From Candidatus Latescibacterota bacterium (GTDB taxonomy: Bacteria; Latescibacterota; UBA2968; UBA8231), in NCBI GenBank assembly GCA_965261395.1, contig OZ253462.1:160001-224000 (forward strand): a stretch of DNA of 64,000 bases, given 5' to 3'. The notes under the pieces are model-generated. The model ran no database searches, was not told the origin of the DNA, and saw only the letters and a list, made by a program, of their open reading frames with translations. Below, one piece after another: positions 10,721 to 52,184 of this stretch (position 1 is its first letter; every line of letters starts with the position of its first letter). The translations under genes and the position numbers were made by a program.

Positions 10721-10756
10721 GAAGCATGAGGATTGGGTTGCCAGGAGGTTGATCGC

Positions 10757-12742: not shown

Positions 12743-12884
12743 CTCCCCACATAGAGTCAACCATCAACATCAGGGCATCCAGATATTCCACTTGCCATAC
12801 TTTTCCCAGATGCGACAGGCGTCACAGGTACACATCAACCGGAGTGCAAAACGCGGTTTGTTACCAAAACTTTCGAACTCTCAG

Positions 12885-14219: not shown

Positions 14220-14261
14220 GATTTGCTACTCGACCAGCCCCCAATCCCCAGCCCCCGCTTC

Positions 14262-14999: not shown

Positions 15000-15016
15000 T
15001 CTTGTTCCTCCTCAAG

Positions 15017-15033
15017 GTATAGGAAAAATAAGG
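15017..15033 (-). repeat. Isolated oriIS-like 17-mer shared with the island repeat
   Basis: GTATAGGAAAAATAAGG is identical to 21249-21265; on the minus strand it reads ...TTCCTATAC followed by CTTG. Confidence 0.45.
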
Positions 15034-15071
15034 GAATTATATATTTGACTTCACAAATCCGTTCAAAACAC

Positions 15072-15115
15072 AAAATCGGCGGTCAGATAGGGTTTCTATG
15101 CTGACCGCCGATTTT
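15072..15115. terminator. Intrinsic terminator (long inverted repeat)
   Basis: AAAATCGGCGGTCAG...CTGACCGCCGATTTT, a 15-bp perfect stem with T-rich tails, downstream of the minus-strand ORF 15140-15427. Confidence 0.75.
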
Positions 15116-15139
15116 TCATTTTAGAAAAGGAGTTATGGG

Positions 15140-15427
15140 TTATGGAGACTCAGAAGGATTGTTTGGATTCGTTAAGGAATCATTTATTTCTTGTTGAATG
15201 TGCTTTACGCCATCTTGGAAACCTTGCTTTACGTGAGGCGGAATATCAGACCTTTGGACGCGATTTTCGTAAAACTCAAGATAAGTGCCAATAACTTGGG
15301 CAATTTGATCTCCATTAGGTATATGATTTTTGATATATCCTAATGTTCCTATTATTGCTTGAGTTGTTGCCATTCTTTGCCCTGAAAGATACTCAGATAT
15401 TTCTTCAGGGCTTTGAGGATTAGACAT
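15140..15427 (-). CDS. Hypothetical protein (low GC)
   Basis: 95-aa ORF with GGAGA RBS and a terminator; AT-rich compared with the backbone. Confidence 0.6.
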   Translation of the reverse strand: MSNPQSPEEISEYLSGQRMATTQAIIGTLGYIKNHIPNGDQIAQVIGTYLEFYENRVQRSDIPPHVKQGFQDGVKHIQQEINDSLTNPNNPSESP

Positions 15428-15600
15428 AGCTAAGTCTCCATTGGTTTGGGATGGTTCAGGCCAGAATTGCCGTCAACGTAACGGAATCCAGTAGCCCGGA
15501 TTTGGACGAAATTGCTCAAAATCGAGCGGAATCAGAGAAAGTAAGGAGAGAATTCCTTAAAATCAATACTTGCTCTGGTTGAAAAATCATTTTATTCTAT

Positions 15601-15766
15601 GGCCGTTCATACTCTTGTAGAGACCCCGTTTAGTCGGGTCTTCTACCCAATACAACAGCCAGAAAGACCCGGCAACAGGGTAGCTCCCTATTGCCCCGGC
15701 GAATAAGTGGAACTTCTCTGATTCTCTACGAGAGTGTGAACAGGCCCGGCCCCTTTAACGGGGGCC
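15601..15766 (+). ncRNA. Candidate structured cis-regulatory leader RNA
   Basis: 19-nt long-range pairing 15605-15623 with 15723-15741 (two G-U pairs), a competing hairpin at 15617-15646 and a GC hairpin at 15748-15766 before the RBS. Confidence 0.4.
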
Positions 15767-15798
15767 ATCCCTGTTCACCTCAACAAAGGAGAATCGCC

Positions 15799-16401
15799 AT
15801 GAAGTTTGCGGTGTTTTTCGTCATTATCGCCCTATTTGCTTGTTCATCGGATAGTCCGGTAGGGCCTAATACGGAGTCTGAACCTGTATTAGAGTCTTCG
15901 GGCAAGGCGGTTGATATAGAAGCAATAGGCGGTCTGTTAAAAGGTCGCTGGTTTAATGTTCACGAACTTAGAGATTCGGATATAATATCATCTATTTGGA
16001 TTTTGGAAGTTCGTGAAATGCCCGGAGAGTCAAGCATTTTTGAATATGACTTAGCCCGGATATATGATGCGAGACAGGAATACTCTCTGAAAGATTACGG
16101 GGAGGAAATAGGTGGTGGAGCTTTCAACGATTTATTGACTTGGGAGTTTGTTGAACGGGGAAGAATCCGGCCATATTCTACGAATGACTCAGGTCATATT
16201 CTATTTGATAGGATATTCAATGATCTCTCTAAAGTCGTTGAAATCGAGATATTTTCTAGTAATCGAGTCATTGTATGGGATTCGATACTTAAAATATCTC
16301 GATGGGATTCATTTGAATATTCTTTAGGCAATCAGATTTTTTTGAATTGTGAAGAATATTCTGATAATGATATATGCCTTTTTGACTACGGTTTCAAATA
16401 A
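15799..16401 (+). CDS. Hypothetical lipoprotein
   Basis: MKFAVFFVIIALFA-C lipobox signal; AAGGAGA RBS; low GC. Confidence 0.7.
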   Translation: MKFAVFFVIIALFACSSDSPVGPNTESEPVLESSGKAVDIEAIGGLLKGRWFNVHELRDSDIISSIWILEVREMPGESSIFEYDLARIYDARQEYSLKDYGEEIGGGAFNDLLTWEFVERGRIRPYSTNDSGHILFDRIFNDLSKVVEIEIFSSNRVIVWDSILKISRWDSFEYSLGNQIFLNCEEYSDNDICLFDYGFK

Positions 16402-16489
16402 AGGAGTTTATGATGGTAAAGCGTGAAGCGATTCCTCAAGAAGTCCATGAGCAGGCCAACTGTCCACGTTCAAGAGAGGGAGGTAAATC

Positions 16490-17095
16490 TTGTCTTATTT
16501 AGTAGGAACTCTCATTGCTGTAATTACAGTATTTGCTTTTTCGCAGCCTTCAGTTGCCCGTGAAAACGAGTTGGAAAGCTGGTACATGTACTGGGGGTTT
16601 GGAGCTTCTGATAATGACCTTTTTGACGATGTAGACCTAGAGGGTACAGGGGTAAGCCATACCTCCCTGTCTGTGGATTCCTTTGGGTTTTATTGGCCGA
16701 GAGGTCAAAAAACACTGGTCGGCGGGGTCATTAATACTTTTGCCGATTTTTTTGAGGGAAGTGATCTTCTTTCTAGTGCCGAGATTAATTCCTATAACTC
16801 GCTTTACTCAATTTCTGCGATGCACTTTCTGTCTCCAAAGATAGGACAGGGATTTTTTGTGCGAGCGGATGCCGGATTAGCCCTTCACTATGCTGAAGTA
16901 AAACTCGATATATTAGGTAATGAAGCAGATTCCGAGTGGACAAGTGAATGGGGATCGGGGTTTCTGATAGGAGGAGGGTACGGACTTCCGATAACAAGCG
17001 GAACGCGATTGCTCCTTAATGCTAATGTCTCTCAGCGGTATGTTGAGGAGGAATCTATGACCAATGTTGGGATCACACTTAACGGGCTGTTTTAG
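16490..17095 (+). CDS. Outer-membrane beta-barrel-like exported protein
   Basis: Signal peptide, alternating aromatic/Gly beta strands and terminal Phe; GGAGG RBS with TTG start. Confidence 0.65.
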   Translation: MSYLVGTLIAVITVFAFSQPSVARENELESWYMYWGFGASDNDLFDDVDLEGTGVSHTSLSVDSFGFYWPRGQKTLVGGVINTFADFFEGSDLLSSAEINSYNSLYSISAMHFLSPKIGQGFFVRADAGLALHYAEVKLDILGNEADSEWTSEWGSGFLIGGGYGLPITSGTRLLLNANVSQRYVEEESMTNVGITLNGLF

Positions 17096-17355
17096 CTGGA
17101 GTTAAGAGCTAAAGAAGTCGATTTCCACTAAAATGGTGCCTGTGAGGGTTTCGACCAAGTGATAAGAGGTAGGCCGGGGAGACTGTCTGACGAATCGCCT
17201 CTTGCAGCCCCCGTGATCGACATTACACAACCCTTAGTTACGCACCCGTCCGGTCGCGTGCGTCGCGAGGCAGTTCGCCTCCTGCAAGGAGCCTAGCCGC
17301 CACACCGGATGCACTCGCACCAAGCCGAACTCCCGGTTGCCCCAGTGTCGGGGGG

Positions 17356-17445
17356 CGTCCTCGGTAGCAGCGCTACTGCGGAGGATGGACGCCCGAACCT
17401 GCTCCATTTCCCGAGCCAGATTCCCCTTGTATGGGAACGAGAGAG
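17356..17445 (-). repeat. Partial copy (right-hand part) of the ISCR-like island repeat
   Basis: CGTCCTCGGTAGCAGCGCTACTGCGGAGG...GCCAGATTCCCCTTG...ACGAGAGA matches 29114-29203 and 23763-23835. Confidence 0.85.
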
Positions 17446-17645
17446 GGCACGTCGCAAGCGCTGGCCGGCGCATGCCCCGGTGGCGATGGTCCCTCGCACC
17501 GAGGCCGCCGTCAGGGCGGCCAGCACGGGCTCCTCATCGGCGAACTGATCGGCGTCGAGTAGGCCGTGTTGGGTACACAGGCGGATGATGAGGCGCGCAC
17601 TCGTCTGCACGATCTGCTGCACCTCTGGGTCGGACAACGGCGGGG
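17446..17645 (-). pseudogene. IS91/ISCR-family (Y2 rolling-circle) transposase internal fragment
   Basis: PPLSDPEVQQIVQTSARLIIRLC...EEPVLAALTAASVRGTIATG...GQRLRR resembles, from memory, the central region of IS91-family transposases; it abuts the repeat. Confidence 0.6.
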
Positions 17646-17852
17646 CTGACAGCCGGAGAAATTGAGATCCTCACGCTGTTTGCCACTGGCAAATCGTACG
17701 CTCAGATAGCAGAGGTGAAGGGCAACAGCCCGATTACTGTTCGGAATGCCATCTACCGCATTTAAGATAGACTTGGAGTAAAGACCAAACAGGAAGTCGT
17801 AGGGTGGGCAGTGCGAAATGGCTTGCTGGGTGACATGCAGCTAGACGACTAG
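17646..17852 (+). pseudogene. LuxR-type HTH (response regulator C-terminus) remnant with internal stop
   Basis: LTAGEIEILTLFATGKSYAQIAEVKGNSPITVRNAIYRI*DRLGVKTKQEVVGWAVRNGLL; no start codon. Confidence 0.75.
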
Positions 17853-18143
17853 CGCCCGCTGGCAGCGGTCAGGTCAGACTTCGTAGGATGTACGACAGTT
17901 GAGGTTGTCGGTTCGGTTTCAGTTCCATTGAGACCTTCCAGCTGAACATTCGCAATACACAATAGACACGAAAAACTCAGGTAATCGTGGCTGGTGGGGC
18001 TAAAGCCAGCACGTAGTCGGACGACACCATTCGTGTGGGGTGGTATCGTCCCCGAGGAGGACCCGTTGTCTCCCCCTTCGGCATCCGATAGCCACCGCGC
18101 GGCCCGGTGAAAATGTAGGTGGGATTGCCCCACGGCATACCAC

Positions 18144-19616
18144 TCAAGCACCCCCACCTTTCGGTTCCGCCGATTGCGTTGACTGACTTTGCCCGCCCTC
18201 TCCAGCTGACATCACTAAGCGGTCCCAGTCGGGAGCGCTTCCATCTCGCAACAAAGCCAACAGAGTGTCTCGGGCCAACTGCCGACCATCGGACAGCGCT
18301 TTCCCAAGGTCAATCCGTTTCCGCCTTGCCCGTGACCCGTGGACCAAAGCGGAACGCGCACCATAGAAATCCTTGACTTTGCGAAATATCCCTATGCGTT
18401 CTTCACCGTTGGTCCCGAGGAGATACCCGGCGCGGGTTTCCAACTTATAGGTGATCTCTGGTGCGTCCAAGCTGTACATGGTCTCAAGAGCTATGGCGGT
18501 ATCTAGGATGCGGTCTTCTGTACCGAATCGCCCAACTCTCGAAGGCAAACCCCCGAGCCGTCGGATGGCAAGGCCAAGCCGATCCCGGTCGTCCTGGTAC
18601 ATTCGCCAAGCCCGAACCATTTCAAGAAAGACTTCTGCACTGTCCTCAGAAAAGTGATTCTCACGCCACCAGTCGTTCGCCCACCCCCCACCACTGGTCC
18701 ACCCGAATTTAACGTTGGGGTCCAGGTCCTCCATCCATTTGTCCACCCGCACATACTGCCGCCGCGATATTTGTTGTTCTCCAGTTGCAATACAGAGGAA
18801 GTCCCGTACCGTTTCGTGGTCCCTGGGGAATTGGTACGTGGACGACGGGTCTTCCATGGTTTCTTCCTCAAAGGAGAATCGGAACCGGGTATTTAAGATT
18901 TTCTCTGATTCCACCTCCGTCGAGGTAATTGCAGGCCCCCAGGTCAGTTCTCTGACGAGCGCCGCGATGCTCTCCGGAGCTTCATCCAAGGGATGACGCT
19001 GTTCGATGCCCGCTGGAAGGTGCCTAAGATTCAGGAACGGGAACTCGCCACAAATCGCTTTAGCCTCTTCGTAGGGAGCCAGGAACGCGCCATCCCCGAT
19101 GTCAAGGCGGCGATCCAACTTGAGTCCGTAGAATAGAGTAACCTCGTAAGCCTTGAGATCCCGGGCCTCACCCAGCGTCAGGAATCGGTGTAATGTCTCG
19201 GCGGCGTTGCTCCCGTCAGTTTTGATAGCCAGTTTGGTCAAGCTAAGCGCCAAGGTCTTTAGTTCGACACGAAACGCGCCGTATGGTCTTAGAAAATGAA
19301 CAGCTTGGCCTTGGCTGGAATGGTCCAACGCCTGGCGTATCACCGGATGTTCACATAGGGCTGCCTTCACATCGGCCGGGTCGTCATCAAACCATAGGTG
19401 GGATTCTTCGAATGCAACCTCCGCGCCGGGTTCATGTTGCGCCCTACTTGCCAGGGTGCGGTACTCCTCATATGACACCTGTCCGGTATATCTATGGACC
19501 CGTCCGAAATCATCGACTTCCTCATAGGGGACCATTGGTCTTACCCTTGGGGCCAGAGCCATCAGGCTGGCAGCCAACCCTTCAATCCAGCAACTAAGTT
19601 CGAAATCTTGCTTCAT
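18144..19616 (-). CDS. HEPN domain protein (ApeA-like C-terminal HEPN), putative defence RNase
   Basis: C-terminal DRILDTAIALETMY...EITYKLETRAGYLL...FYGARSALVHG with an RxxxxH motif. Confidence 0.75.
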   Translation of the reverse strand: MKQDFELSCWIEGLAASLMALAPRVRPMVPYEEVDDFGRVHRYTGQVSYEEYRTLASRAQHEPGAEVAFEESHLWFDDDPADVKAALCEHPVIRQALDHSSQGQAVHFLRPYGAFRVELKTLALSLTKLAIKTDGSNAAETLHRFLTLGEARDLKAYEVTLFYGLKLDRRLDIGDGAFLAPYEEAKAICGEFPFLNLRHLPAGIEQRHPLDEAPESIAALVRELTWGPAITSTEVESEKILNTRFRFSFEEETMEDPSSTYQFPRDHETVRDFLCIATGEQQISRRQYVRVDKWMEDLDPNVKFGWTSGGGWANDWWRENHFSEDSAEVFLEMVRAWRMYQDDRDRLGLAIRRLGGLPSRVGRFGTEDRILDTAIALETMYSLDAPEITYKLETRAGYLLGTNGEERIGIFRKVKDFYGARSALVHGSRARRKRIDLGKALSDGRQLARDTLLALLRDGSAPDWDRLVMSAGEGGQSQSTQSAEPKGGGA

Positions 19617-19880
19617 CCTTCCTCACCTCTTTTGGGAATTGGCTTCGTGCTCCGAACCCCCAAGCCGATCTGGAGGACGCATCATCACAGACCCCTTACA
19701 GGTTCTCCTTGTCAGGCGGTCCCTCTGAGTAGGACTGGAACAAAGCCGGCTACGTTCTCATCGAGTCGGGCGCTTTCCCGGTCGGCCCTTCGCCGACAGT
19801 CAGCAGGCCAGCCAAGCACGAGGCGTGGGAGGATGGCTCCACCAGCGCAGTGGAAAACATTCTCGCCCGCCGCAGTATCG

Positions 19881-21188
19881 TCACGGAACAGCCATGTAGA
19901 ACTCCATCAAGTGGGGGAGTAGACTCAGCGCATGGAGGTGCTCTCCTAGCTGAGAGACGAACACTGACTCAGTATCATCTGGGTCAATGTTGTCAGACGC
20001 TACGTGAAACACAATGTTCCGAAAGTATCTAAGCTTGGGCGGAACGGCTTGCGGTCCCGCAATTCCTTCAATCTCATCGTGTCGTAACTCAGGAAACTCT
20101 TCGACAGCCTGGTGGTATATCCTCAGAGGTTCGGCAAGCAATGCGGTACTCACGCGCACCGGAGCAATCAGGTTTTGAGCCTGCTGATCGGTGATTGAGC
20201 TAGTATCCATGACCAATAAATCAAAGGGGCTGTGGGCATCCAGTTCAGTCCGGCTTCTGATTGCTCGTAACTTGCTGATGTCGAGTAGATTCACAAACTC
20301 ATTTGACAGTACCAGAGACCGCATCAGAATTCTCACGCAGTCCGTCTTAGCCTCCTGAACAAAGGATGGATAGCGTGGCCCATGGCTGACATTGTGCTTT
20401 CTGAACAACCCGAGCATATACCATGTTCGCAGGTTAAACGGTGTCTGGGTTGATTCATCAGTTGGGGTGTTGTATAAGCCGGGCAATGGACGCGAGAAAA
20501 CTTCCCACCTCTTATGCAATTTTGAAAGTTTGTCCTTGTCAGCTGGTCCAGAAGATTTGTTGGCGCGAAGTAACTCTTCGCCGACCAACTCGGATAATGA
20601 CCATCGGAGCCATGCTGCATACGCATCAATTGCCGACTGAGCCTTAAACACAGTGGAGTAGTAGTGACCATCTATCCCTCCGCCAGTCTCCATGAAGTTG
20701 TCGAGTGCGTCATGGAGATGTATTCGTTTAGCAGGATGCAACACCTTATCCCTAAGAGTGGTCAGATGTTGAATAGTAGTCTCGTTGGACTGGAACAAGG
20801 CTTCGAGGGGATCGAAGAGGAGGGCTGGGTCTCTTCTTGACTCCCTTCTATAACTCTCCAATTCCGCAGAGAGTAGGCACAAGTACATTTCCCATGGAAC
20901 CCAAGTCACAAACTCCAATATCCTGCGACTATTTAAGTCTGGGTCGAGGTCTTGGTCTTGGAACATCAGGTTATATACGGCGTCAATGTCCCTGTCATCG
21001 ATCAGTTGGGACATGCCTAGATTCTTCATCACACGAGTTTGGTGGTTGATATTGCGGAATGCAATGACGCGAACACCTTCCAATATGACACTCCGGTGAT
21101 ACTGAAGGTTTCGGTAGTGCTTTATTGCCTCATTCGGCAAATGGCTTCGCATTTTCTTATAGGCACCCTTATGTTTATCGGTCATCAT
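19881..21188 (-). CDS. Hypothetical protein with two HEPN-like RxxxxH motifs
   Basis: LRDKVLH and FRNIVFH lie in two similarly patterned helical halves; about 435 aa. Confidence 0.6.
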   Translation of the reverse strand: MMTDKHKGAYKKMRSHLPNEAIKHYRNLQYHRSVILEGVRVIAFRNINHQTRVMKNLGMSQLIDDRDIDAVYNLMFQDQDLDPDLNSRRILEFVTWVPWEMYLCLLSAELESYRRESRRDPALLFDPLEALFQSNETTIQHLTTLRDKVLHPAKRIHLHDALDNFMETGGGIDGHYYSTVFKAQSAIDAYAAWLRWSLSELVGEELLRANKSSGPADKDKLSKLHKRWEVFSRPLPGLYNTPTDESTQTPFNLRTWYMLGLFRKHNVSHGPRYPSFVQEAKTDCVRILMRSLVLSNEFVNLLDISKLRAIRSRTELDAHSPFDLLVMDTSSITDQQAQNLIAPVRVSTALLAEPLRIYHQAVEEFPELRHDEIEGIAGPQAVPPKLRYFRNIVFHVASDNIDPDDTESVFVSQLGEHLHALSLLPHLMEFYMAVP

Positions 21189-21248
21189 TCAAATCCCCAA
21201 TGTTCAATGGATTGCGACGCTCAGATATCGGAGGCGGCTGTATGTTAT

Positions 21249-21418
21249 GTATAGGAAAAATAAGGCCCGATGTCGGTACTATGCAGTTCGCTGAAAACGT
21301 ACGCAAGGGGCCAGCAGGGTCCCTGATGAATCGCTTGTCGTCGTCCAGCATCGTTCGGGACTGCTCTCAGTACCGTTGTAAAGGATTTCTGTGCGTTTCA
21401 GGGGTCAGCCCGGTACTT
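21249..21418 (-). mobile_element. oriIS-end of an IS91/ISCR-like element (repeat copy)
   Basis: Highly similar to 28937-29108. Ends on the minus strand in TTCCTATAC, about 220 bp downstream of a transposase-like C-terminus. Confidence 0.65.
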
Positions 21419-21471
21419 GAGGGTGCACTCCTCCGTACCGCTCACGGCGCCGGGAGCGAATCGGGAGGAGG

Positions 21472-21630
21472 TCAGGCAGCGAACTCAAACTGCGGCTGAG
21501 GCGGGCCCTCGGCGGGGGCACCGCCGGCAGCCTTACCCCGCATCAGCACATCACGCCGGTCCGTCTTCACCCGCTCCCCACTGCGACGCGAGATCCGACT
21601 CGGTGCCACCACCTCGCACCGGTGGCCCGC
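21472..21630 (-). pseudogene. Fused transposase scraps: IS110-like fragment plus IS91-like C-terminus
   Basis: CEVVAPSRISRRSGERVKTDRRD (IS110 KTDxxD motif) followed by PAEGPPQPQFEFAA* (IS91-like C-terminal tail). Confidence 0.6.
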
Positions 21631-21634
21631 TTGG

Positions 21635-23589
21635 CTACTTCGGTCGCGCGAAGGCAACGAGCGCGGCGTCTGGCCCGGTGCCCGTCGCGATGACGATGAA
21701 CTGCCGCCCCGACCGCGCCCGGTAGGTCATCGGGTTCGCGTTCGTTGGAAACGGCGTCGCGCCACGCCAGACCTCGGTGCCCGTCGCCTTGTCGAACGCA
21801 TATAGGTACGGAGTGCCGCCGCCGAGGAACACGAGGCCCCCCTTGGTCACCATCGGGCCGGAGTTGCCGCGCGTGCCCAGCCGCTCCGGCAGCTCGACGC
21901 CGCGCAGCAGCGGGTGATTGCGGATCTCGGGGCTGCCCTCACCGAACGGTATCTTCCACGCAATCTCGCCAGCATCGAGGTCAATAGCCACTAGGTGCGC
22001 GTACGGCGGCTTGATGAGCGGAATCGGGCCGAGCTTGCTCTCCGGGGTTTGCGCGGTGCCCGGTCCGTCGGCCTCCCGAAACATGAGGAGCGACGCACCC
22101 CATAGGGACAGTTGTTGCTGTACTCGACGTCGACTTCCGGGTCGTTGCCCGCATTCTCGCACAACTGGTTCGTGTCGGCGTCTTCCGATGTCCGAACGTA
22201 CAGCAGCCCGGTCTCGGGATCAAAGGCCGCCCCGCCCCAGTTCGCGCCGCCGCTGGCGCCCGGGCGCTGGAGCGTCCCCTGAAGACTCGGCGGCGTGAAG
22301 AGCGGACCCAGCCGGAACCGCTGCATCTCCTCCACCGCGAGCGCGTGGATCTCCGGCGTCAGATCGTTCGCGTCCTCCAGCGACACCCCCTGCCTGCTGA
22401 AAGGCGGCGGCTTGGTCGGGAACGGCTGCGTCGGATACAGCACCTCGCCCGGCACGTCCGTCGTCGTGTCCACCGCACGCTCCTCGATTGGCCACACCGG
22501 CTCGCCCGTCACCCGGTCGAACACGTACGTGAAGCCGTGCTTGGAAACCTGCGCCACCGCGTCGATCTCGCGCCCGTCCACCGTTACCGTCACGAGGTTC
22601 GGCGCTGCGGACAGGTCGTAGTCCCACACGCCGTGATGCACCGCTTGGAAGTGCCACTGCCGCTCACCCGTGCGCACGTCGAGGCACACCAGCGACTCGG
22701 CGAAGAGGTTCGCCCCCACCCGGCGGCCACCCCAGTAGTCGCTGCTCGGCGTGCTCGTCGGCACGTACAGCAGCCCGCGCTCGGCGTCGAGCGATATCAG
22801 CCCCCACACGTTGGCGTGGCCGGTGTAGCGCCACGACTCGTCCTCATAGGTGTCCGCGCCGAAGTCGTCGCTCGATTGCGGGATGGTGAAGAAGACCCAG
22901 CGGCGCTCGCCCGTGCGGGCGTCGAACGCCTGCACGGTTCCGGGGGTGTCGAACTTTCGCTGCAGCCGGTCAGGCACGCGGCTTCCCACGATCACTAGGT
23001 CCTCGAACACCACCGGCGGCGAGGTCTGGTCGAACTCGTGGCGGGTCACCGGGCGGCCATGGCCCTCGGTCAGCACAACGCTCCCGCTCTCGCCGAAGTC
23101 CGTGTCTAGCTCGCCGGTCGCGGCATCGATTGCGTACAGCCGGTCGCGGCTGTTGAGGAAAACGCGGTCGTCGTCGCCGTCGCTCCAGTAGGCGATACCC
23201 CGGTGCTTGAAGCCCCTCGGCCCCACACCCTTGGGCCCACCTTCGTAGGCCTTGGGATCAAAGGTCCACAGTTCGGCACCCGTCTCCGCGTCGAGAGCCA
23301 CCACACGCGTGTACATGGTGGAGAGGTAGAGGACGTTGCCGATCATGATGGGCGTTGCCTGGAATGGGCCCGGCCGGATGCCGTACTCCGCGAGGGGCAT
23401 CTCGTTCGGCTCCCATTGCCAGACGATCTCCAGTTCGTCGACATTCGCGGCCGTGATCTCCTCAGCCGCCGAGTACTTAGTGGGCGCCTGCTCGGCACCG
23501 ACGTACGGCCATTCAATCATGACGCCCGATTCCTGGGCGCCTGCGAGGGTGGTAAACAAGAGGGCGGCTGTCGCAACGAATCGCTTCAT
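21635..23589 (-). pseudogene. PQQ-dependent (quinoprotein glucose-type) dehydrogenase, frameshifted near 22100
   Basis: Signal peptide, FQATP, HHGVWDYD, PTQPFP and GGANWGG in one frame; KPPY..LVAIDL and ANPMTY...GRQFIVIA in another. The shift falls at a G-run. Confidence 0.8.
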
Positions 23590-23630
23590 GGAGGGGAATC
23601 CGATTGGAGAATGGAAACTAGTTTCGCGGC

Positions 23631-23666
23631 GTATTCTACGTATTCTAGGTATTCTACGTATTCTAG
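23631..23666. repeat. 9-bp tandem repeat (GTATTCTAS x4)
   Basis: GTATTCTAC GTATTCTAG GTATTCTAC GTATTCTAG upstream of the PQQ dehydrogenase. Confidence 0.85.
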
Positions 23667-23675
23667 ATATCATGG

Positions 23676-23841
23676 GTCGGCAATATGCAGTTCGCTGAAA
23701 ACGCACGCAAGGGTCCAGCAGGGTCTCTGATGAATCGCTTGTCGTCGCACAGAATCGTTCGGGCTACTGCGGAGGGTGGATGCCTGAACCTGCGCCATTT
23801 TCCTAGCCAGATTCCCCTTGCCTGGGGACGAGAGAATGCCC
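23676..23841 (-). mobile_element. Internally deleted copy of the ISCR-like repeat
   Basis: Left and right halves of the 28937-29208 element are joined at GTTCGGG|CTACTGCGG; the oriIS-like tip is missing. Confidence 0.7.
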
Positions 23842-24145
23842 CTATCCGCGCTGAGCTACCAGCAGGACTATGAAGAGACCGGGAGATGGCGAAAACACTG
23901 GTGGCAAAAGATCGCAGCACGGGTGAAGAAAATGGATAGAAAGCCTGGGTTGGCTACGCAGTCGACGGCGACAGTCGAAATCGTCGGGACAGGGTACGAC
24001 TTCATGACGAACCACGCTCCCCGAAGATAAAAGGCGTGTAGTACGAACCCGAGGGAAGTTACAGTGTCGAGGTGTAGGGGCTCGTCGGGAAGGCCGAATG
24101 GACCCGTCCGGCGAGATTTGTATGCGATCATTTTGCATCGGCTAC

Positions 24146-24177
24146 TTGACAATCAGCCGTAAACACCGTAAGCTTAC
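24146..24177 (+). promoter_or_regulatory. Sigma70 promoter (leaderless) with overlapping palindromic operator
   Basis: TTGACA-17 nt-TAAGCT; ATG lies 7 nt after the -10 box with no SD; palindrome GTAAGCTTAC covers the -10 box. Confidence 0.65.
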
Positions 24178-24180
24178 AAC

Positions 24181-24525
24181 ATGTCCAAGACGTTGGGTGA
24201 GCGTATTCGCGAGCTGCGTGATCAGGCAGATCTCTCCCTACGCGACCTGTCAAAGAGGACCGGTGGCCTGACGGCTGCTTTCCTTTCGGATATTGAGCTG
24301 GGGCGACGTTTTCCCTCAGATGATGCCCTTGTCCGTTTGGCCAAGGCGTTGGGGACGACAGTCGAGGATCTTCGAACCTACGACACGCGTCCGCCAGTAC
24401 AAGAGATCAAGCGGTTATCCGCGCAGAATCCCGCAATCGGTGCGGCTTTTCGTAAGATCACCGAGATGACGCCGGAAGAGATACTGAAGATGGTTGAGAA
24501 ATCGACAAGAAAGAAAAAAAAGTGA
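24181..24525 (+). CDS. XRE-family HTH repressor (CapH-like)
   Basis: LGERIRELR...LSLRDLS...FLSDIELGRRFPS; overlaps the peptidase start codon. Confidence 0.85.
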   Translation: MSKTLGERIRELRDQADLSLRDLSKRTGGLTAAFLSDIELGRRFPSDDALVRLAKALGTTVEDLRTYDTRPPVQEIKRLSAQNPAIGAAFRKITEMTPEEILKMVEKSTRKKKK

Positions 24526-25217
24526 GGAGTCTACGCGCGGATTCGGGTCCCTTCACGGAGAAGCCATTCTTCACCGAGAGCGAGATCGAACGAATGTGCG
24601 AGTGTGCCCTCCGCGAAGCAGGATATTACCCTTCCGAACCGTCGCGGGTGAACATCGACCGGTTTATCGAGAAGCACTTTGATGTTTCGCCACAGTTCGA
24701 GGATCTTCCGGAAGGAGTTCTCGGTTACTCTTGCTTCGGCGGCGATGGAATGATCAGCATGCACATTACGACGGCACTTACAAACGCGGGAACGCGAGTA
24801 GCCGAACGTCGCGTGAACACGACCCTAGCGCACGAGGCAGGTCACGGGCTGTTTCACTCATATCTCTTCAGCCTTGCTGAAGCCGGGTTAGAGCTTTTTG
24901 AGTCTGATCCCGATGTGACAAAGACTAGGATCCTCTGCCGCGATGAGAATACGCAACGGCAGAAGGTCAACGGGCGATGGTGGGAGACTCAGGCAAATAT
25001 GGCGATCGGTCCCCTGCTGATGCCAAGATCACTTGTCGTGGAAGTGGTTAAGCCATTTCTTGTCTCTACAGGCCTCTTGGGAATCGGGGATGTGCCTGAA
25101 GATAAGCGCGAGAATGTGGTCGCGACGCTCTCCGACGTTTTCGACGTTAACCCTGTCGTGGCGCGTATTCGATTGGAGGGAATTTTCAAGCCCTCGGGGG
25201 GGCAGCTGTCGCTCTGA
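24522..25217 (+). CDS. ImmA/IrrE-type zinc metallopeptidase (CapP-like)
   Basis: RRVNTTLAHEAGH (HExxH), WETQAN...LLMP and FDVNPVVARIRL. Confidence 0.85.
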   Translation: MRSLRADSGPFTEKPFFTESEIERMCECALREAGYYPSEPSRVNIDRFIEKHFDVSPQFEDLPEGVLGYSCFGGDGMISMHITTALTNAGTRVAERRVNTTLAHEAGHGLFHSYLFSLAEAGLELFESDPDVTKTRILCRDENTQRQKVNGRWWETQANMAIGPLLMPRSLVVEVVKPFLVSTGLLGIGDVPEDKRENVVATLSDVFDVNPVVARIRLEGIFKPSGGQLSL

Positions 25218-25321
25218 TTTTTTTTGGATAAGATGTAATCATTGTCAGCTTACATAAGCTTCTATTGAACCTGAATTCCGGTCTCTATGGACGAGCCGGG
25301 ATTGCGAGTAAAGGAGAAACA

Positions 25322-25390
25322 ATGGAAAAAATTTTGACTTACCTTCGATATGGGAACCAACCGATGTCCATCAGAAAGGAAACCAACTGA
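25322..25390 (+). CDS. Candidate 22-aa upstream ORF coupled to the Ubl gene
   Basis: AAGGAG RBS, MEKILTYLRYGNQPMSIRKETN*, and TGATG overlap with the Ubl start. Confidence 0.35.
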   Translation: MEKILTYLRYGNQPMSIRKETN

Positions 25391-25656
25391 TGTCCACCCC
25401 AAAGAAGATTTCAATCACCGTAGTCGTCAACGGCCAGCCAACTGTGGTCGATGCCAGCCAAGATGAACCCCTCGGTACGATTATTCCTGATGCGTTGCGT
25501 CAGACAGAGAACTCGGGCCAGCCACCAGAGAATTGGGAGCTCCGCGGTGCCGATGGGACGCTTCTTGACCTAGACAAGAAGATCGAGGACTACGGCTTCC
25601 CATCCAAGGTCCGCCTGTTCCTGAATCTCAAGGCGGGGGTTGGAGGCCATGGTTAA
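25390..25656 (+). CDS. bilA: Ubiquitin-like protein (DUF2604-like, BilA)
   Basis: Beta-grasp pattern (ITVVVNG...WELR...LDLDKKI...LFLNLKAGVGG) with C-terminal Gly-Gly plus a 2-aa tail (HG). Confidence 0.8.
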   Translation: MSTPKKISITVVVNGQPTVVDASQDEPLGTIIPDALRQTENSGQPPENWELRGADGTLLDLDKKIEDYGFPSKVRLFLNLKAGVGGHG

Positions 25657-26254
25657 CGCGACCGAACAGCATGTAGACCCCGAGGTATCCCGTACCAAGT
25701 TCGATCGCGAGATTACCGAGTACCTTTCCCTTGAGGCTGACTACCGCGCCCGGGGCTGGTTTCTTGTGAAGGCGGACTGGCCTGTGGCAGTCGTTGTTCT
25801 GGCCTCGAATAAGACCAGCCCGCCGGCGATTGTGACCGCCGTCCAGTTCGACTATACGAACTATGACGCCGAGCCGCCCTCAGTTCGCATGACTGATCCG
25901 TTCTCCGGCCGATTTCTTCTAAGCAAGGAGCTCCCCACCCGCCTCCTTCGCGCGATCCCCGGACCGGAGATGCCCCTACCGAACGGCACCAAGGTGCAGC
26001 AGGTATCGGTGCAGGAGCTGATGCAGGCTCACTCTCCGGAAGACCAACCCTTCCTCTGCGTAGCCGGGGTCAAGGAATATCACGACCACCCTGGCCATTC
26101 CGGTGACCAGTGGGAAATACACCGGTCCGCTGGCGAAGGTCGGATGGTTCGCCTGTTGGAGGTGATTTCCAAGTACGGCCTCGAACCGGTGCAGGGGTTC
26201 AACGTCAACCTCGTACCGCAAGTTACCTTCACTGTCTCGGAGCCTCCCCAGTGA
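25649..26254 (+). CDS. bilB: E2-like conjugating enzyme (CEHH domain, BilB)
   Basis: DYTNYDAEPPSV (E2 YP..PP-like motif) and FLCVAGVKEYHDHPGH (Cys/Glu/His/His). Confidence 0.8.
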   Translation: MVNATEQHVDPEVSRTKFDREITEYLSLEADYRARGWFLVKADWPVAVVVLASNKTSPPAIVTAVQFDYTNYDAEPPSVRMTDPFSGRFLLSKELPTRLLRAIPGPEMPLPNGTKVQQVSVQELMQAHSPEDQPFLCVAGVKEYHDHPGHSGDQWEIHRSAGEGRMVRLLEVISKYGLEPVQGFNVNLVPQVTFTVSEPPQ

Positions 26255-26742
26255 CCCTACGAGGCGTGCGGCGTTTTCGAATCCAGGCGAGTGCCATACG
26301 CGAAACCATGGAGGCGATTCGGTCTGCAGGACAGGATGGCTACGAGTTGTTCGTAGTATGGTCGGGTACGCGTGATGACGACATCTTCACCGTCGCCAAG
26401 GTGCATATCCCTAAACAAACCTCCTACAAACTCGATGCCGGACTCTGCGTACGAGTTGACGGTCCTGAGCTCCATCGCTTGAACATGTGGCTCTACGAGG
26501 CACAGCAGGCCATAGGAGTGCAGGTCCACGGTCATCCAGCCGATGCCTATCACTCGGAAACCGACGACACCTACCCGATCGCCACAATGCACGGAAGCCT
26601 ATCCATCGTCCTTCCCTTCTTCGGCCACGACGGCTGGGAGTCAAGTGATATCGCGGCCTATCGTCTCGGGCAAGACGGATGGGTCGAACTAACCGGCCCC
26701 TTGAGTGACCTGATAGAGGTTGTTGACAATGGCGTTAGCTGA
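26251..26742 (+). CDS. bilC: JAB/JAMM deubiquitinase-like peptidase (BilC)
   Basis: N-terminal Glu (GYELFV) and QVHGHPADAYHSETDD (HxH-x7-S-x2-D-type JAMM motif); GTGA overlap with the E2 stop. Confidence 0.85.
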   Translation: MTLRGVRRFRIQASAIRETMEAIRSAGQDGYELFVVWSGTRDDDIFTVAKVHIPKQTSYKLDAGLCVRVDGPELHRLNMWLYEAQQAIGVQVHGHPADAYHSETDDTYPIATMHGSLSIVLPFFGHDGWESSDIAAYRLGQDGWVELTGPLSDLIEVVDNGVS

Positions 26743-28234
26743 CTATTTCCCTCGCGACGCGGTCGCCATCTCGCAAGTGCTCCAGGGGTTTCAACGCGAC
26801 GCCTTCATCGAAAAGCTCGAGGGTGTCCGAGTGGCAATCGCCTTCGGCGAGGAGGCGGCTACCAGCCGCGACGGGCGCGAACTCCTTGATCTCTCTGTCA
26901 GGCTAGCGGCTCGCTTGTACCCGAGCCTGACGTTTGCCACCGTTCCTGCCGGAGATCGGTTCGCCGATGAACTGATGGCGTTGGCCAGTAGCATCAACCC
27001 TAACATCGAAGCGTCTAAGACGGGTACTGCTAATGTTGGTCTCTCGATCGGCGGGGATGCACCGGCCCTAAACGCACCAACCGTATATGCTGGCTGCGAT
27101 GGCTGGCTGGCCAAGGTGGGAACTGAGGGCCCATACATGACCAGCGACCTAGGGAACCCCTTTGGAGCCGGCTTCGCCGCCTGCTTGGCGGCAGCCAACT
27201 TGTTTCGCTTCCTCTTCCTCCCCAACGGCACAACTTTGCTGGATACCGACATTAGTTTCCCTCCCGACGACGCCTCTTTCCCCAGTCTTGCGGCGTCCAC
27301 ACTGGCGGATCCCCTGGTGTTGGTCGGCGTTGGGGCGGTCGGCAACAGTGCCTCCTGGGCCCTATCGCGTACGCCGCTCACCGGCCAGATTTACCTAGTC
27401 GATCCACAAGTCGTCGAACTTAGCAATCTCCAGCGCTACGTTCTTGGTGCACGGAGCGACGAAGGCGGCATCAAAGTTGATGTCGCTGCGAAGGAGTTTC
27501 GCGCCGCGCTACAGGCGCTTTCTCATCATGGAACATGGGCTTCCTTCCTCTGCGCCAATGGCTACAAGTGGGAACGCGTTCTAGTTGCCCTCGACTCCGC
27601 CCATGACAGGCGAGCCGTACAAGGGAGCCTGCCACGTTGGATCGCTAACGCATGGACCCAAATAGGCGATCTCGGCGTGTCCTCTCACTCTTTCTTGGGT
27701 CAAGACGCCTGTCTTGCCTGCCTTTACTTGCCAACCGAGAAATCCAAGAGCGAAGACCAGATCGTCGCTGAAGGCCTTAAGATCCCTCAATTCCAGGATC
27801 CGGTTCGCTTTCTGCTCGGAAGCGGGCAGGCGACCGGCAAGGAGCTCTGTGACGCGGTTGCTGCCGCTTGGGGCATCCCGGCCGAGACACTGGAGCCTTA
27901 TATAGGTAGGTCGATACGTGAACTTTGGGTGGAGGGCATCTGTGGCGGCGGTATCATTCCTCTCGGAGAAGCCGGACCTACTCCGGGAGACCGGCAAGTT
28001 CCGCTTGCTTTCCAATCGGCTCTTGCCGGTATGCTGCTGGCCGCGGAAACGGTACGCGACGTGTTGACCGACGGTGCTCAACGCAAGACCCTCATGCGCC
28101 GGCTTGATGTCTTGCGCCCCTTAGGCGATCCTTCACCCCAACCGGCGCTCAAGGCCGGAACGGGTAGCTGTATCTGTGAGGATCGCGATTTTATTACTAC
28201 CTATCGAACAAAGTATGGAGCAGAAACTGGCTGA
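26729..28234 (+). CDS. bilD: E1/ThiF-family activating enzyme (BilD)
   Basis: GVGAVG, DPQVVELSNLQRY, ACLACLY, GICGG and C-terminal CIC; about 500 aa with an extra N-terminal domain. Confidence 0.88.
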   Translation: MALADYFPRDAVAISQVLQGFQRDAFIEKLEGVRVAIAFGEEAATSRDGRELLDLSVRLAARLYPSLTFATVPAGDRFADELMALASSINPNIEASKTGTANVGLSIGGDAPALNAPTVYAGCDGWLAKVGTEGPYMTSDLGNPFGAGFAACLAAANLFRFLFLPNGTTLLDTDISFPPDDASFPSLAASTLADPLVLVGVGAVGNSASWALSRTPLTGQIYLVDPQVVELSNLQRYVLGARSDEGGIKVDVAAKEFRAALQALSHHGTWASFLCANGYKWERVLVALDSAHDRRAVQGSLPRWIANAWTQIGDLGVSSHSFLGQDACLACLYLPTEKSKSEDQIVAEGLKIPQFQDPVRFLLGSGQATGKELCDAVAAAWGIPAETLEPYIGRSIRELWVEGICGGGIIPLGEAGPTPGDRQVPLAFQSALAGMLLAAETVRDVLTDGAQRKTLMRRLDVLRPLGDPSPQPALKAGTGSCICEDRDFITTYRTKYGAETG

Positions 28235-28289
28235 CTTTGATGGCTGATTGGAGCGGGTTAGCTGATCGACCCGCTCTAGGCATCGAGTC

Positions 28290-28622
28290 CTACGCCTCAA
28301 CAAGCCAATCCTCACACGGTTTATACCCTTCATTCACCGCATCCTGATAGTAAGATGTGAGGCCAGAGACGGCCCTATTAAGGGCATGCGCAGGATCATC
28401 GGCGCACGGAAGGCTGGTCCGGTAGGCATCCACCTGCCTAGGCGTATGAATCACATGGCTGACCTCAAAGGTTGTCTTTTCGCTGCTCATAAATCTACAA
28501 AGTCTTATGGTGATGTGAGTCTTAAGATCTCCAAGCCGGATGACGAACCTTCCTAGGTCATCATCTCGTTCAAGTACGGTGATGAGATCCTGGTCCAAGA
28601 CGTTATCAAAGGTGTAAGGCAT
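28290..28622 (-). CDS. Hypothetical protein (110 aa), convergent with the E1 gene
   Basis: GAGGAGGAG RBS and a clean ORF. Confidence 0.65.
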   Translation of the reverse strand: MPYTFDNVLDQDLITVLERDDDLGRFVIRLGDLKTHITIRLCRFMSSEKTTFEVSHVIHTPRQVDAYRTSLPCADDPAHALNRAVSGLTSYYQDAVNEGYKPCEDWLVEA

Positions 28623-28936
28623 CGAACTCCTCCTCTGTGAGTTGGTTTAACTTCTCTATGTGCCGGGCCAAGGGAGGAACGTCCGTGCTGACTTCGACCC
28701 CTCCCTTTGGATGGCCCGGCAACTCTTCTCAATCCTGCTTCGTTGGTGGCTAGGGGCCTACTACCGGCTTGAGTAAGGGCTTTGTTTTTGTGACGGTCAC
28801 CGTTAGATCCTCAAAGGCGACTTCTTGGTTGCCACCAACAAAGACACCTACACTCCCTCCATAAGCAGTAAAACCCCGCCAATACCGACTATTCCAAACA
28901 TAGCGTCTGCACTGGCATCTTTTCCTAAATAGAAAT

Positions 28937-29208
28937 GTATAGAAAAAATAAGGCACCGATATCGGTACTATGCAATTCGCTGAAAACGTACGCAAGGGGT
29001 CAGCAGGGTCCCTGATGAGTCGCTTGGTCGTCGCACCGAATCGTTCGGGAATGCTCAGAGCACCGTTGTAAAGGATTTCGGCGCGTTTCAGGGGTCAACC
29101 TAGTACTTCCCCCCGTCCTCCGTAGCAGCGCTACTGCGGAGGGTGGACGCCCGAACCTGCGCCATTACCCGAGCCAGATTCCCCTTGCTTGGAAACGAGA
29201 GAACGCCC
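28937..29208 (-). mobile_element. Longest copy (about 270 bp) of the ISCR/IS91 oriIS-end-like repeat
   Basis: Contains both halves seen at 21249, 23676 and 17356, plus the internal palindrome CCTCCGTAGCAGCGCTACTGCGGAGG. Confidence 0.7.
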
Positions 29209-29222
29209 TTTATTATTTCTAA

Positions 29223-31415
<2,193 letters not shown>

Positions 31416-31460
31416 TCTCAGCGGGGTGCTCGGTAACGGTGGTCTCCGGTGCATCTGAGG

Positions 31461-31511
31461 GCCGCCTTGTGACTCCGTCGATGATGCCCGCCGACGGAGT
31501 CGCAAGGTGGC
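31461..31511. terminator. Long stem-loop downstream of katG
   Basis: GCCGCCTTGTGACTCCGTCG...CGACGGAGTCGCAAGGTGGC, a 20-bp stem with two G-U pairs; no clear U-tail. Confidence 0.45.
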
Positions 31512-31585
31512 AACCCAAGGCAAAACAACCGGATACGACGCGAAATTCTTTGGCGGCCCCAAGGTCGCGCTCTTCGAGTCCCACT

Positions 31586-32674
31586 ATGGCCCATCGTCCT
31601 CGCATCCTCTTCCTCGCCCGCCGCTACCCGCCCACCATCGGTGGCATCCAGACCCACTGTCACGCGCTCTATACCCGACTGGCCAACCAAGCCCAAGTCC
31701 GTCTCGTCGCGCTGGGCCGCCAATCGCTTCTGCATCTAACTTGGTTCCTCCCCTATTGCTTCGCTGTCGCCTTTTGGGCCGTGCTCGGCCGCCGCGTCGA
31801 TGCCGTGTACTTCGCCGACGGGGTCGCCGCGTCGTTGGCTCCACTCCTGCGTCCTTTGGGTCCGGCGCGATTCGTCACCACCGTCTATGGCCTCGAAATG
31901 ACCTACAAAAATCCCCTCGCGCGCGCGCTGATGCACTGGGGAGTCCGCGCCTGCGACAAGGTCGTCGTCATCAGCGAACACAGCCGCCGCATTACCGCTG
32001 CCAGCGGCGTCCCCGAGGCCAAGTTGGAAATCGTCTATCTAGGGGTTGAGCCGCTGGAGTTGGCACCAGACGAGTTGGCAGCCGTCCGAGCGCGCTTTGA
32101 GCAGGAACACGGGCTGCGCTTTGGCCAAGACCGCATCCTGTTGCTTTTCGGCCGCCAGGTTCCCCGCAAGGGCATGGTCGAATTTTTGGCAAAAGGTATG
32201 CCCCTGCTCGACGCGGATATTCGCCTCTTGATCTGCGGTCCGCCAGCAAGCGAGACCGCACGCTTGCAGGAGTGCTGTCAATCGGGCCTAAAGGACCGCG
32301 TCACCTTGCTCGGGCCAGTCCCCGACGATGTGCTGGCCATGCTGCGCACCAGTTGCGATCTTTTCCTCATGCCCAACCTCCACCTACCCGGCGATGTCGA
32401 AGGCTTCGGCCAGACCCAACTCGAATGTATGTACGCTGGCACCCCGGCCGTGGCCTTTGCTGTCGATGCCCTGACCGAGAGCGTGCGCGAAGGCGGATTT
32501 CTCGTTGACCCGGAAGATTACCCGGCCTTCGTCGCGCAAATCCATCGCTTCCTCGCGCTCGGCCCGGCGGAGCGCGCCGATATCGGCCGCCAGTGCCGCG
32601 CCTACGTGCGACGCGAATACGCTCAGCAAAGAATCGCCGCCCAATACATGGATCTCTTTACTGGAAGGATCTAA
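31586..32674 (+). CDS. Glycosyltransferase family 4
   Basis: YPPTIGGIQ, GRQVPRKG and EGFGQTQLE. Confidence 0.88.
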   Translation: MAHRPRILFLARRYPPTIGGIQTHCHALYTRLANQAQVRLVALGRQSLLHLTWFLPYCFAVAFWAVLGRRVDAVYFADGVAASLAPLLRPLGPARFVTTVYGLEMTYKNPLARALMHWGVRACDKVVVISEHSRRITAASGVPEAKLEIVYLGVEPLELAPDELAAVRARFEQEHGLRFGQDRILLLFGRQVPRKGMVEFLAKGMPLLDADIRLLICGPPASETARLQECCQSGLKDRVTLLGPVPDDVLAMLRTSCDLFLMPNLHLPGDVEGFGQTQLECMYAGTPAVAFAVDALTESVREGGFLVDPEDYPAFVAQIHRFLALGPAERADIGRQCRAYVRREYAQQRIAAQYMDLFTGRI

Positions 32675-51473: not shown

Positions 51474-51490
51474 CGTCCGACTCGATTAGG

Positions 51491-52144: not shown

Positions 52145-52184
52145 CGGTGCTCTCTACGGTCGGCACCCGTGCCAACCAAATCCC

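Follow-up and report, generated by a model that had tools for sequence, protein, structure and literature searches.

We analysed a 64,000-nucleotide stretch of the genome of a Candidatus Latescibacterota bacterium (assembly GCA_965261395.1, contig OZ253462.1, positions 160,001 to 224,000; hereafter the window), in which six adjacent genes encode a repressor, a zinc peptidase and the four proteins of a bacterial ubiquitin-like conjugation system of the Bil class. Positions 24146-28234 very probably form a self-contained, horizontally acquired Type II BilABCD module under the control of a damage switch of the CapH/CapP type. What this copy adds to earlier descriptions is its lineage, the spread of its Bil clade across phyla, and a short, GAF-less, co-directional CapH/CapP pair with a conserved promoter/operator.

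Identity, integrity and spread of the Bil operon

Six co-directional open reading frames (ORFs) on the + strand, from the capH start at 24181 to the bilD stop at 28234, occupy the positions that an initial annotation of the window had assigned to a helix-turn-helix (HTH) protein, an HExxH peptidase, a ubiquitin-like protein (Ubl), an E2, a deubiquitinase (DUB) and an E1, and the family matches agree with these assignments (Table 1). BilA matched Pfam DUF2604 (9.9e-28) and PDB chain 8tyx_A, the Ensifer aridi BilA (6.7e-25). Its C-terminus reads ...KAGVGG-HG, with G86 aligned to E. aridi G97 and followed by the two-residue tail HG; GG plus a tail of 2-3 residues closes BilA in eight relatives. 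This agrees with the universally conserved Gly and up to nine extra residues reported for Type II Ubls by Chambers et al. (10.1101/2023.09.26.559546). BilB matched Pfam Metal_CEHH (2.4e-55), PDB 8tyz_C (1.5e-49) and the PADLOC BilB model, and its C140, E146, H148 and H153 (numbered on the 204-aa ORF opening at 25640) align with E. aridi C138, E144, H146 and H151.

BilC was placed by PDB 8tyx_B, the E. aridi BilC (3.9e-31), and by PADLOC BilC (1.5e-9). It carries E32, H93-x-H95 (HGH), S102 and D105, of which E32 and D105 align with E. aridi E33 and D106. Three of the Pfam families named for the operon in the initial annotation, DUF2604, CEHH and ThiF, were thus borne out, whereas the fourth, Prok-JAB, was not, BilC having no Pfam match at E<=0.01. 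BilD matched Pfam Prok-E2_C (4.8e-22), which covers the N-terminal inactive adenylation domain (IAD), ThiF (6.9e-10) and the PADLOC BilD model, and aligned with PDB 8tyz_A across residues 4-500 (3.6e-106). Its catalytic C405 (501-aa numbering) is aligned to E. aridi C417, and its GxGxxG (G200/G202/G205), C328-x-x-C331 and C481-x-C483 motifs consist of residues invariant in the alignment of relatives.

Every mapped catalytic residue of the four proteins is conserved relative to the E. aridi residues named by Chambers et al. (10.1101/2023.09.26.559546). With four full-length matches to E. aridi chains and these residues kept, the operon is complete in the order Ubl-E2-DUB-E1, and it looks intact as predicted from its sequence, the reading frames holding no frameshift and no internal stop; the initial annotation was right on both points. 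The starts of bilB, bilC and bilD were fixed by alignment to the PDB chains. Adjacent genes overlap by 4 nt at capH/capP (GTGA), 8 nt at bilA/bilB, 4 nt at bilB/bilC (a GTGA start/stop) and 14 nt at bilC/bilD; the overlapping bil starts and stops show a predicted translational coupling.

By homology, the operon falls under the Type II BilABCD definition of Chambers et al. and is a member of a described system, not a new one. It shares with the Type II Bil operon of E. aridi TW10 (8TYX, 8TYY, 8TYZ, 8TZ0) the common gene order, a DUF2604 Ubl, a CEHH E2, a JAMM DUB, an IAD+ThiF E1 with a CYS insertion and the same catalytic residues. It differs in the Ubl tail after the conserved Gly (HG here, a single Ala in E. 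aridi), in its host, an uncultured non-proteobacterial lineage, and in its regulators, which here are co-directional and of a short type. Type I Bil (Collimonas; described by Hor et al., 10.1101/2023.09.04.556158) and Bub operons are likewise Ubl/E1/E2(/DUB) conjugation modules. Type I Bil, however, has a two-domain Ubl and another E2 and E1 clade, and Bub operons have DUF6527 and E2-E1 fusions, whereas the Pfam families found here are those of Type II. The minimal single-domain Ubl, singled out as a special trait in the initial annotation, is the common form, since 105 of 134 Type II Bil Ubls are reported to have a single beta-grasp domain (10.1101/2024.11.21.623966).

The CEHH E2 family is small: among 1.84 billion cluster representatives, E<=0.001 is reached by 316 proteins and E<=1e-10 by 208. 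Chambers et al. (10.1101/2023.09.26.559546) report 162 Type II Bil operons, mostly from Rhizobiaceae, 135 of which encode all four proteins. The lineage studied here is poorly studied, as the initial annotation had supposed: the phylum is uncultured, and only 2 of the 168 phylum genomes searched, the host and G095, carry a CEHH E2. In G095, bilABCD adjoins a Cys/Met pyridoxal-phosphate (PLP) enzyme gene, and no capH-capP pair is present. BilD was not found in 40 relatives (24 of them in the genus) beyond ThiF-core matches of about 60-75 aa.

BilD proteins 68-88% identical to this one were found in nine loci, in metagenome-assembled genomes (MAGs) titled Spirochaetia, Chloroflexota, Dehalococcoidia (five), Longimicrobiales and Latescibacterota, labels that may be imprecise. 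BilB, BilC and BilD are present in all nine and BilA in eight; capH, capP and orf110 are present in none. One of these loci (L021) has no recognisable bilA and a shortened bilB match. Identity to rhizobial plasmid copies of BilD was only 40-42.5% (12 records). The near-identical operon clade in MAGs of several phyla suggests recent transfer across phyla. GC content at third codon positions (GC3) is 0.54-0.72 from capH to bilD and in orf110, against 0.69-0.84 in most genes around them. At low depth, metagenome contigs from four studies contained the same junctions between the flanking repeated segment described below and capH, between capP and bilA, and from bilD through orf110 to the segment. 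Coverage of the Bil genes on metagenome contigs was 10-50 times that of the capH-capP pair, which points to other Bil carriers. Metagenome joints skipping from 23761 to 29047 fit an empty-site form; with sides of 20 nt, they give only a weak hint.

The capH-capP pair and its candidate operator

The initial annotation had placed a CapH/CapP-like switch ahead of the operon. A co-directional pair does lie upstream of the Bil genes; the peptidase, with no room for a GAF domain, is not a canonical CapP. CapH matched Pfam HTH_31 (1.9e-13; also HTH_3) and PADLOC capH (8.7e-15). Its best PDB sequence matches were DdrO proteins (3.7e-8), with CapH 7t5u at 8e-4. The HTH spans residues 5-65, and the C-terminal helical region holds A89-[F/L]90-R91, in which A89 and R91 were invariant, with F or L between them, in 20 of 20 aligned CapH sequences. 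E. coli CapH is reported to be cut between F82 and R83, within its C-terminal oligomerisation region (Lau et al., 10.1101/2022.04.27.489752), and because the motif matches this mapped site, it probably corresponds to it.

The peptidase was placed by PADLOC and fold comparison only: neither Pfam (E<=0.01) nor a PDB sequence search gave a match, and PADLOC capP (4.5e-7) matched at profile positions 3-123 of 242 only. Its motifs are H104-E105-x-x-H108 (HEAGH), C139-R140 and E155, and all six residues were invariant in 38 aligned members. C139-R140 is followed by D141-E142, acidic residues after the Cys as in the E. coli cysteine-switch loop, and C139 sits 16 residues ahead of E155, the same spacing as between C113 and E129 of Thauera CapP. 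C139 is thus a putative cysteine switch and E155 a putative third zinc ligand. The AlphaFold2 model reached a mean predicted local distance difference test (pLDDT) of 82 and a predicted template-modelling score (pTM) of 0.83. The cysteine-switch loop is larger than in CapP and was modelled at pLDDT 53-67 (residues 111-150). IrrE, PprI and Thauera CapP were the only Foldseek matches of the model at E<=0.001. VIA-align ranked Thauera CapP (7t5t) first (Z 14.6, root-mean-square deviation 3.7 Å, 162 aligned residues), ahead of PprI/IrrE (Z 10.8-12.0) and unrelated metallopeptidases (Z about 5 or less).

After E155 there are 76 residues, versus about 150 after E129 in Thauera CapP, and the model fills them with three helices and two short strands. 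Judged by length and model, the protein is too short for a GAF domain, which could not be accommodated there; it is predicted to work like CapP, yet it is not a canonical CapP by architecture. The CapH/CapP pairs from the CBASS loci of E. coli MS115-1 and of Thauera sp. K11 resemble this one in combining an XRE repressor with an IrrE-fold HExxH peptidase that has a Cys followed by acidic residues, and in the hydrophobic-Arg motif; their link to CBASS and Ubl-conjugation operons is also found here. They differ in peptidase length (278-288 aa, against 231 here) and lack the operator duplication described below. The CapH/CapP papers (10.1101/2022.04.27.489752; Calloji et al., 10.64898/2026.05.16.725639) report that canonical CapP joins a central HTH-like linker to a C-terminal GAF domain, that the GAF domain of CapP/IrrE forms half of a single-stranded DNA (ssDNA) groove, and that a cysteine-switch loop occurs in about a third of CBASS CapPs. 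In DdrO/IrrE (PprI) of Deinococcus and ImmR/ImmA of ICEBs1, too, a peptidase cleaves the repressor, as would be the case here by analogy; those pairs govern a DNA-repair regulon or element excision, unlike this one. Lau et al. (10.1101/2022.04.27.489752) describe IrrE as containing a GAF domain and lacking a cysteine switch; the peptidase here has no room for the former and carries a putative version of the latter.

Complex prediction supports binding between peptidase and repressor as modelled. The pair scored an ipSAE of 0.79, versus 0.06 for the best of three controls, with at least 97% of contacts in common among three runs and a partner pLDDT of at least 80. Of 80 solved complexes, 58 attain the mark applied, as do 2 of 110 mismatched pairs; these counts are rough for the present case, in which our own alignments were used. 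The confident interface places the CapH HTH (residues 10-40) on the peptidase domain (44-61 and 84-98), and a GAF domain is not involved.

The peptidase belongs to a family of ~230-aa proteins with 2,227 matches at E<=0.001. The few members with names are annotated as hypothetical or ImmA/IrrE and stem from Acidobacteriota-type MAGs. We fetched 80 metagenome loci encoding the family and inspected the 40 with the longest flanks. In 36 of the 40, a same-strand capH-like ORF ran up to the capP start; two others were cut by the contig end and two failed the ORF rule. The co-directional regulators reported in the initial annotation therefore hold for this locus, where capH, capP and bilABCD all lie on the + strand, and recur in the family. 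Downstream genes were scanned in 35 loci, leaving out four with duplicate layouts and one without a downstream + strand ORF. Among the first 1-4 same-strand ORFs, PADLOC found E1, BilC/BilD or JAB-type proteins in 24/35 loci, CBASS in 8/35 and no match in 3/35, so that in 32 of the 35 the pair is followed immediately, in the same direction, by a defence-type operon. Pfam matches among 65 downstream ORFs from the 27 non-CBASS loci were Multi_ubiq in seven loci, Prok-E2_E in three, DUF6791 in three, DUF6527 in two, Prok-E2_C in one (L039) and a partial Metal_CEHH in one (L056). A Rhizobium phaseoli plasmid carries, in one direction, HTH, ImmA/IrrE, DUF2188, multiubiquitin, E2, ThiF and DUF6527 genes, and a Paraburkholderia plasmid has a similar co-directional layout. 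The short CapP family thus mostly precedes Bub-like or other Ubl-conjugation operons; Bub operons are reported to be linked to CapH and CapP in 168 of 544 cases (PMC11601596). Three metagenome loci (L055, L063 and L074) have the same kind of capH and short-capP pair ahead of operons encoding a large E1-E2-JAB fusion of 742-859 aa. The fusion is preceded in L055 and L074 by an ORF with weak PADLOC matches to LmuA- and MBL-type models, and L074 then has Wadjet JetA.

A candidate operator was recovered by comparing words across these loci; a repeat scan for short palindromes had missed it. The copy before capH, O1, is a perfect 10-bp palindrome, GTAAGCTTAC, that contains a -10-like TAAGCT and ends 4 nt ahead of the capH ATG at 24181, so the capH mRNA would be leaderless or nearly so. 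A weak terminator-like hairpin and T8 run (25199-25225; T8 at 25218-25225) follow directly on the capP stop. Beyond them lies the second copy, O2, which reads GTCAGCTTAC (25244-25253) and adjoins the half-matching ATAAGCTTCT (25254-25263). The word AGCTTACA occurs at only two places in the 64 kb, O1 and O2.

Words common to the capH-upstream and capP-downstream regions were repeatedly built from GTAAGC/GCTTAC. The longest shared word was not significant in any single locus (in the window, 91 of 300 shuffles reached the same length), and the operator signal therefore comes from the recurrence of one word across loci. Allowing at most one mismatch to GTAAGCTTAC, a first count over 30 loci (3 of 33 were dropped when the anchor pattern failed) found it just before capH in 26 and 20-49 nt past the capP stop in 17, with 5 matches in the other 330,831 nt. 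A held-out set had the operator in 23 of 48 loci, mostly at the two expected places, and it was found in 0 of 12 control loci (~143 kb), which comprised Bil operons without the capH-capP pair and two plasmid loci. All 81 sequences together gave 43 upstream-class matches in 42 loci (66 had enough upstream flank), 27 downstream-class matches in 27 loci, 24-72 nt after the end of the capP match (68 loci had at least 80 nt there), and 7 matches elsewhere. The position of the operator is thus conserved both at capH and after capP. It is absent from two distant plasmid HTH-ImmA/IrrE-Ubl operons (peptidases 28-29% identical), which presumably use another site.

Of the 43 upstream operators, 33 have TTGAC 21-23 nt ahead of them, 22 of these at exactly 22 nt; because of this spacing, the TAAGCT or TATGCT of the operator can serve as a -10 element after a 17-nt spacer. 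A T7-8 tract starting right after the capP stop precedes many of the downstream copies. We infer from these arrangements that CapH binds the palindrome and that binding would occlude the -10 element, and that O2 may be a second controlled promoter or a roadblock.

Table 1. Features of the locus, with positions in the window
Feature	Position	Strand	Remarks
Candidate capH promoter and operator O1	24146-24177	+	TTGACA 24146-24151, 17-nt spacer, GTAAGCTTAC 24168-24177
capH-like, XRE-family repressor	24181-24525	+	114 aa; Pfam, PADLOC and PDB matches
capP-like, short CapP/IrrE-like zinc metallopeptidase	24522-25217	+	231 aa; PADLOC capP, fold match
capP-bilA spacer signals	25199-25263	+	Weak hairpin and T8, O2, half-matching ATAAGCTTCT
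bilA, pro-Ubl, single beta-grasp domain	25390-25656	+	88 aa; DUF2604, PDB 8tyx_A
bilB, CEHH-type E2	25649-26254	+	201 aa from likely ATG 25649 (ORF opens at 25640)
bilC, JAB/JAMM deubiquitinase	26251-26742	+	163 aa from GTG 26251 (ORF opens at 26110)
bilD, E1	26729-28234	+	501 aa from likely ATG 26729 (ORF opens at 26720)
orf110, convergent to bilD, inside island	28290-28622	-	110 aa, low GC3 (0.54), no assigned function
Left partial copy of katG-upstream segment	23676-23841		Segment positions 43-130 joined to 211-289
Right full copy of katG-upstream segment	28935-29250		Directly before katG (29247-31415)

Proposed mechanism and competing explanations

The four Bil proteins would act by homology to those of E. 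aridi. BilC, the JAMM protease, would trim the HG tail of pro-BilA and expose Gly86; BilD would adenylate Gly86 and then form a thioester on Cys405; the Ubl would be handed to Cys140 of the CEHH E2 BilB; and BilA would finally be conjugated to lysines of target proteins. A CapH-like dimer on GTAAGCTTAC, over the -10 element of its own promoter, and on the second copy after capP would keep capH-capP-bilABCD expression low. Upon a stress signal, the short cysteine-switch peptidase would cut CapH, probably at A-F90|R91, and the operon would be derepressed. This model of regulation draws on sequence statistics, the fold match and the complex prediction.

Several observations weigh against this interpretation. 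DNA-damage sensing is not assured, because the peptidase has no room for the GAF domain and hence for half of the canonical CapP ssDNA groove. The predicted complex docks the CapH HTH, and the proposed cleavage site is not confidently placed in the active site. In the window, O2 has one mismatch and only a weak -35 element. A sigma-70 consensus scan of 23800-28700 gave no site, so the proposed capH promoter rests on cross-locus conservation. The loci that support the operator motif are also those from which it was derived, although the held-out set upheld it. The capH-capP pair is absent from all nine of the closest Bil operons and from the phylum's other carrier, G095, and the regulator is therefore an add-on that appears dispensable for Bil function. 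Finally, neither the targets of Type II Bil conjugation nor its biological consequences are known, according to a later preprint (10.1101/2024.11.21.623966).

The biological output is most likely antiphage by analogy, antiphage activity having been demonstrated only for Type I Bil. The initial annotation had stated that Bil systems conjugate the Ubl to phage structural proteins. This has been shown for Type I Bil only, in which conjugation to phage tail fibres was reported by Hor et al. (10.1101/2023.09.04.556158); the targets of Type II are given as unknown in the source just cited for them. The same enzymology could instead serve a general DNA-damage or stress modification of host proteins, an explanation to which we give a small but appreciable chance. 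A role of Type II Bil outside antiphage immunity has been raised in print (10.1101/2024.11.21.623966), and the regulators resemble the DdrO/IrrE stress switch. Nor does the locus sit in a recognisable defence island: the flanking ORFs scanned in 9137-24030 and orf110 had no PADLOC match, the nearest being an AbiLi/AriA-like ATPase ~25 kb away. However, the same regulator family also precedes CBASS in 8 of 35 loci, Type I Bil is reported to be antiphage (Hor et al., 10.1101/2023.09.04.556158), and the patchy, cross-phylum distribution of Bil is typical of defence genes.

It is very unlikely that the HTH-peptidase pair is a self-regulating mobile-element remnant of the ImmR/ImmA type that lies beside the Bil genes by accident. 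The HTH-then-peptidase order on one strand does recall ImmR/ImmA modules, as described by Lau et al. (10.1101/2022.04.27.489752), and accidental proximity would account for the absence of the pair from the nine closest Bil operons. It would not account for the defence-type operon directly downstream in 32 of 35 family loci or for the operator copy that, in 27 loci including this one, separates capP from the operon behind it; nor is there an integrase or excisionase nearby. That BilA is a ThiS/MoaD-like sulfur carrier which the E1 merely adenylates or thiocarboxylates is scarcely credible: weak ThiF/MoeB matches in the BilD adenylation core (NCBIfam E ~5e-7, far below the cut-offs) are set against a dedicated E2 with a catalytic Cys, a JAMM protease, full-length matches to the conjugating E. 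aridi enzymes, and the finding of Chambers et al. (10.1101/2023.09.26.559546) that BilA is structurally nearer ubiquitin than ThiS or MoaD.

Within the preferred reading of a Type II Bil module under a CapH/CapP-type switch, one further proposal is tentative, and we hold it to be possible though doubtful: that CapH and the short, GAF-less cysteine-switch CapP represent a distinct regulatory subclass, arranged co-directionally as capH-capP-operon, with the GTAAGCTTAC operator in its own -10 element and again after capP, and serving mainly Ubl-conjugation and CBASS operons. Lacking half of the ssDNA groove, and with the CapH HTH docked on the peptidase domain in the predicted complex, such a pair may detect its trigger by other means than CapP and IrrE do. 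Published pairs are described as divergent, by Lau et al. (10.1101/2022.04.27.489752) in "all" cases and by Chambers et al. (10.1101/2023.09.26.559546) "in all but one case" of the 25 Type II Bil operons with CapH/CapP, whereas here the pair lies on the same strand as its operon; supplementary tables may already list co-directional or short-CapP cases.

The locus takes Type II Bil, whose first catalogue was drawn mostly from Rhizobiaceae, into an uncultured phylum. It also provides a testable promoter/operator model for the short CapP proteins, a widespread family with over 2,200 database members at E<=0.001. At 4.1 kb, the unit is compact enough for heterologous work on the role of Type II Bil.

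Flanking repeats and neighbouring genes

The initial annotation had described the operon as bracketed by ISCR-like repeats. Direct repeats do flank it, at 23676-23841 and 28935-29208; additional partial copies lie at 21247-21418 and 17356-17444, and all are confined to this local region of the 6.55-Mb genome. Their ISCR nature was rejected: no rolling-circle transposase is present, the ORFs scanned between 9137 and 33729 encode no transposase, integrase or IS91/ISCR family member, and the repeats are partial duplications of the native katG-upstream region. In full, the segment is 331 nt long and forms the spacer upstream of katG; it occurs in 25 of 30 genus relatives, usually with several partial copies within 10-25 kb. 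The internal deletion in the left copy is the same as in the native spacer between the pyrroloquinoline quinone (PQQ)-dehydrogenase gene and katG in two genomes, G001 and G010. The segment is not a known RNA, since an Rfam scan of 18000-32000 gave no match at E<=0.1. Segment positions 16-55 contain the palindrome ACCGATATCGGT.

In seven relatives examined, the stretch between the gene at 10733-12742 and katG was variable, and none of them carries the Bil island. They have FAD-oxidoreductase, PhyH and PQQ-dehydrogenase genes in differing orders, each beside a partial copy of the segment. Genus-wide, the region corresponding to 12885-29250 (loci L107-L114) is a hotspot in which native genes and foreign cassettes stand in differing orders with no recombinase nearby. 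Lying in this recombination hotspot, the Bil island was therefore probably exchanged through flanking homology.

The PQQ-dependent dehydrogenase gene at 21635-23706 (- strand) is split into overlapping ORFs in different frames (21991-23706 and 21635-22162), and its halves are contiguous in one frame in G010 and G001; the frameshift would mark either a pseudogene or an assembly error. Within the island, orf110 had no Pfam, PADLOC or NCBIfam match, and Atlas gave only unnamed clusters of ~111 aa (score 0.92). Four ORFs of 201-490 aa at 15691-17095 (+) and 18144-21188 (-) lie in low-GC DNA (0.42-0.49 in places). They had no Pfam, NCBIfam or PADLOC match and were not found in the hotspot of the seven relatives, and by composition and content these two stretches are a putative second foreign island. 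Further away, a low-GC patch at 51189-54495 contains an XRE HTH gene (51189-51473), a PADLOC PDC-S07 match (52185-52973, - strand) and the AbiLi/AriA-like ATPase gene (53137-54495; PADLOC AbiLi 4.5e-80), and is a possible second defence locus.

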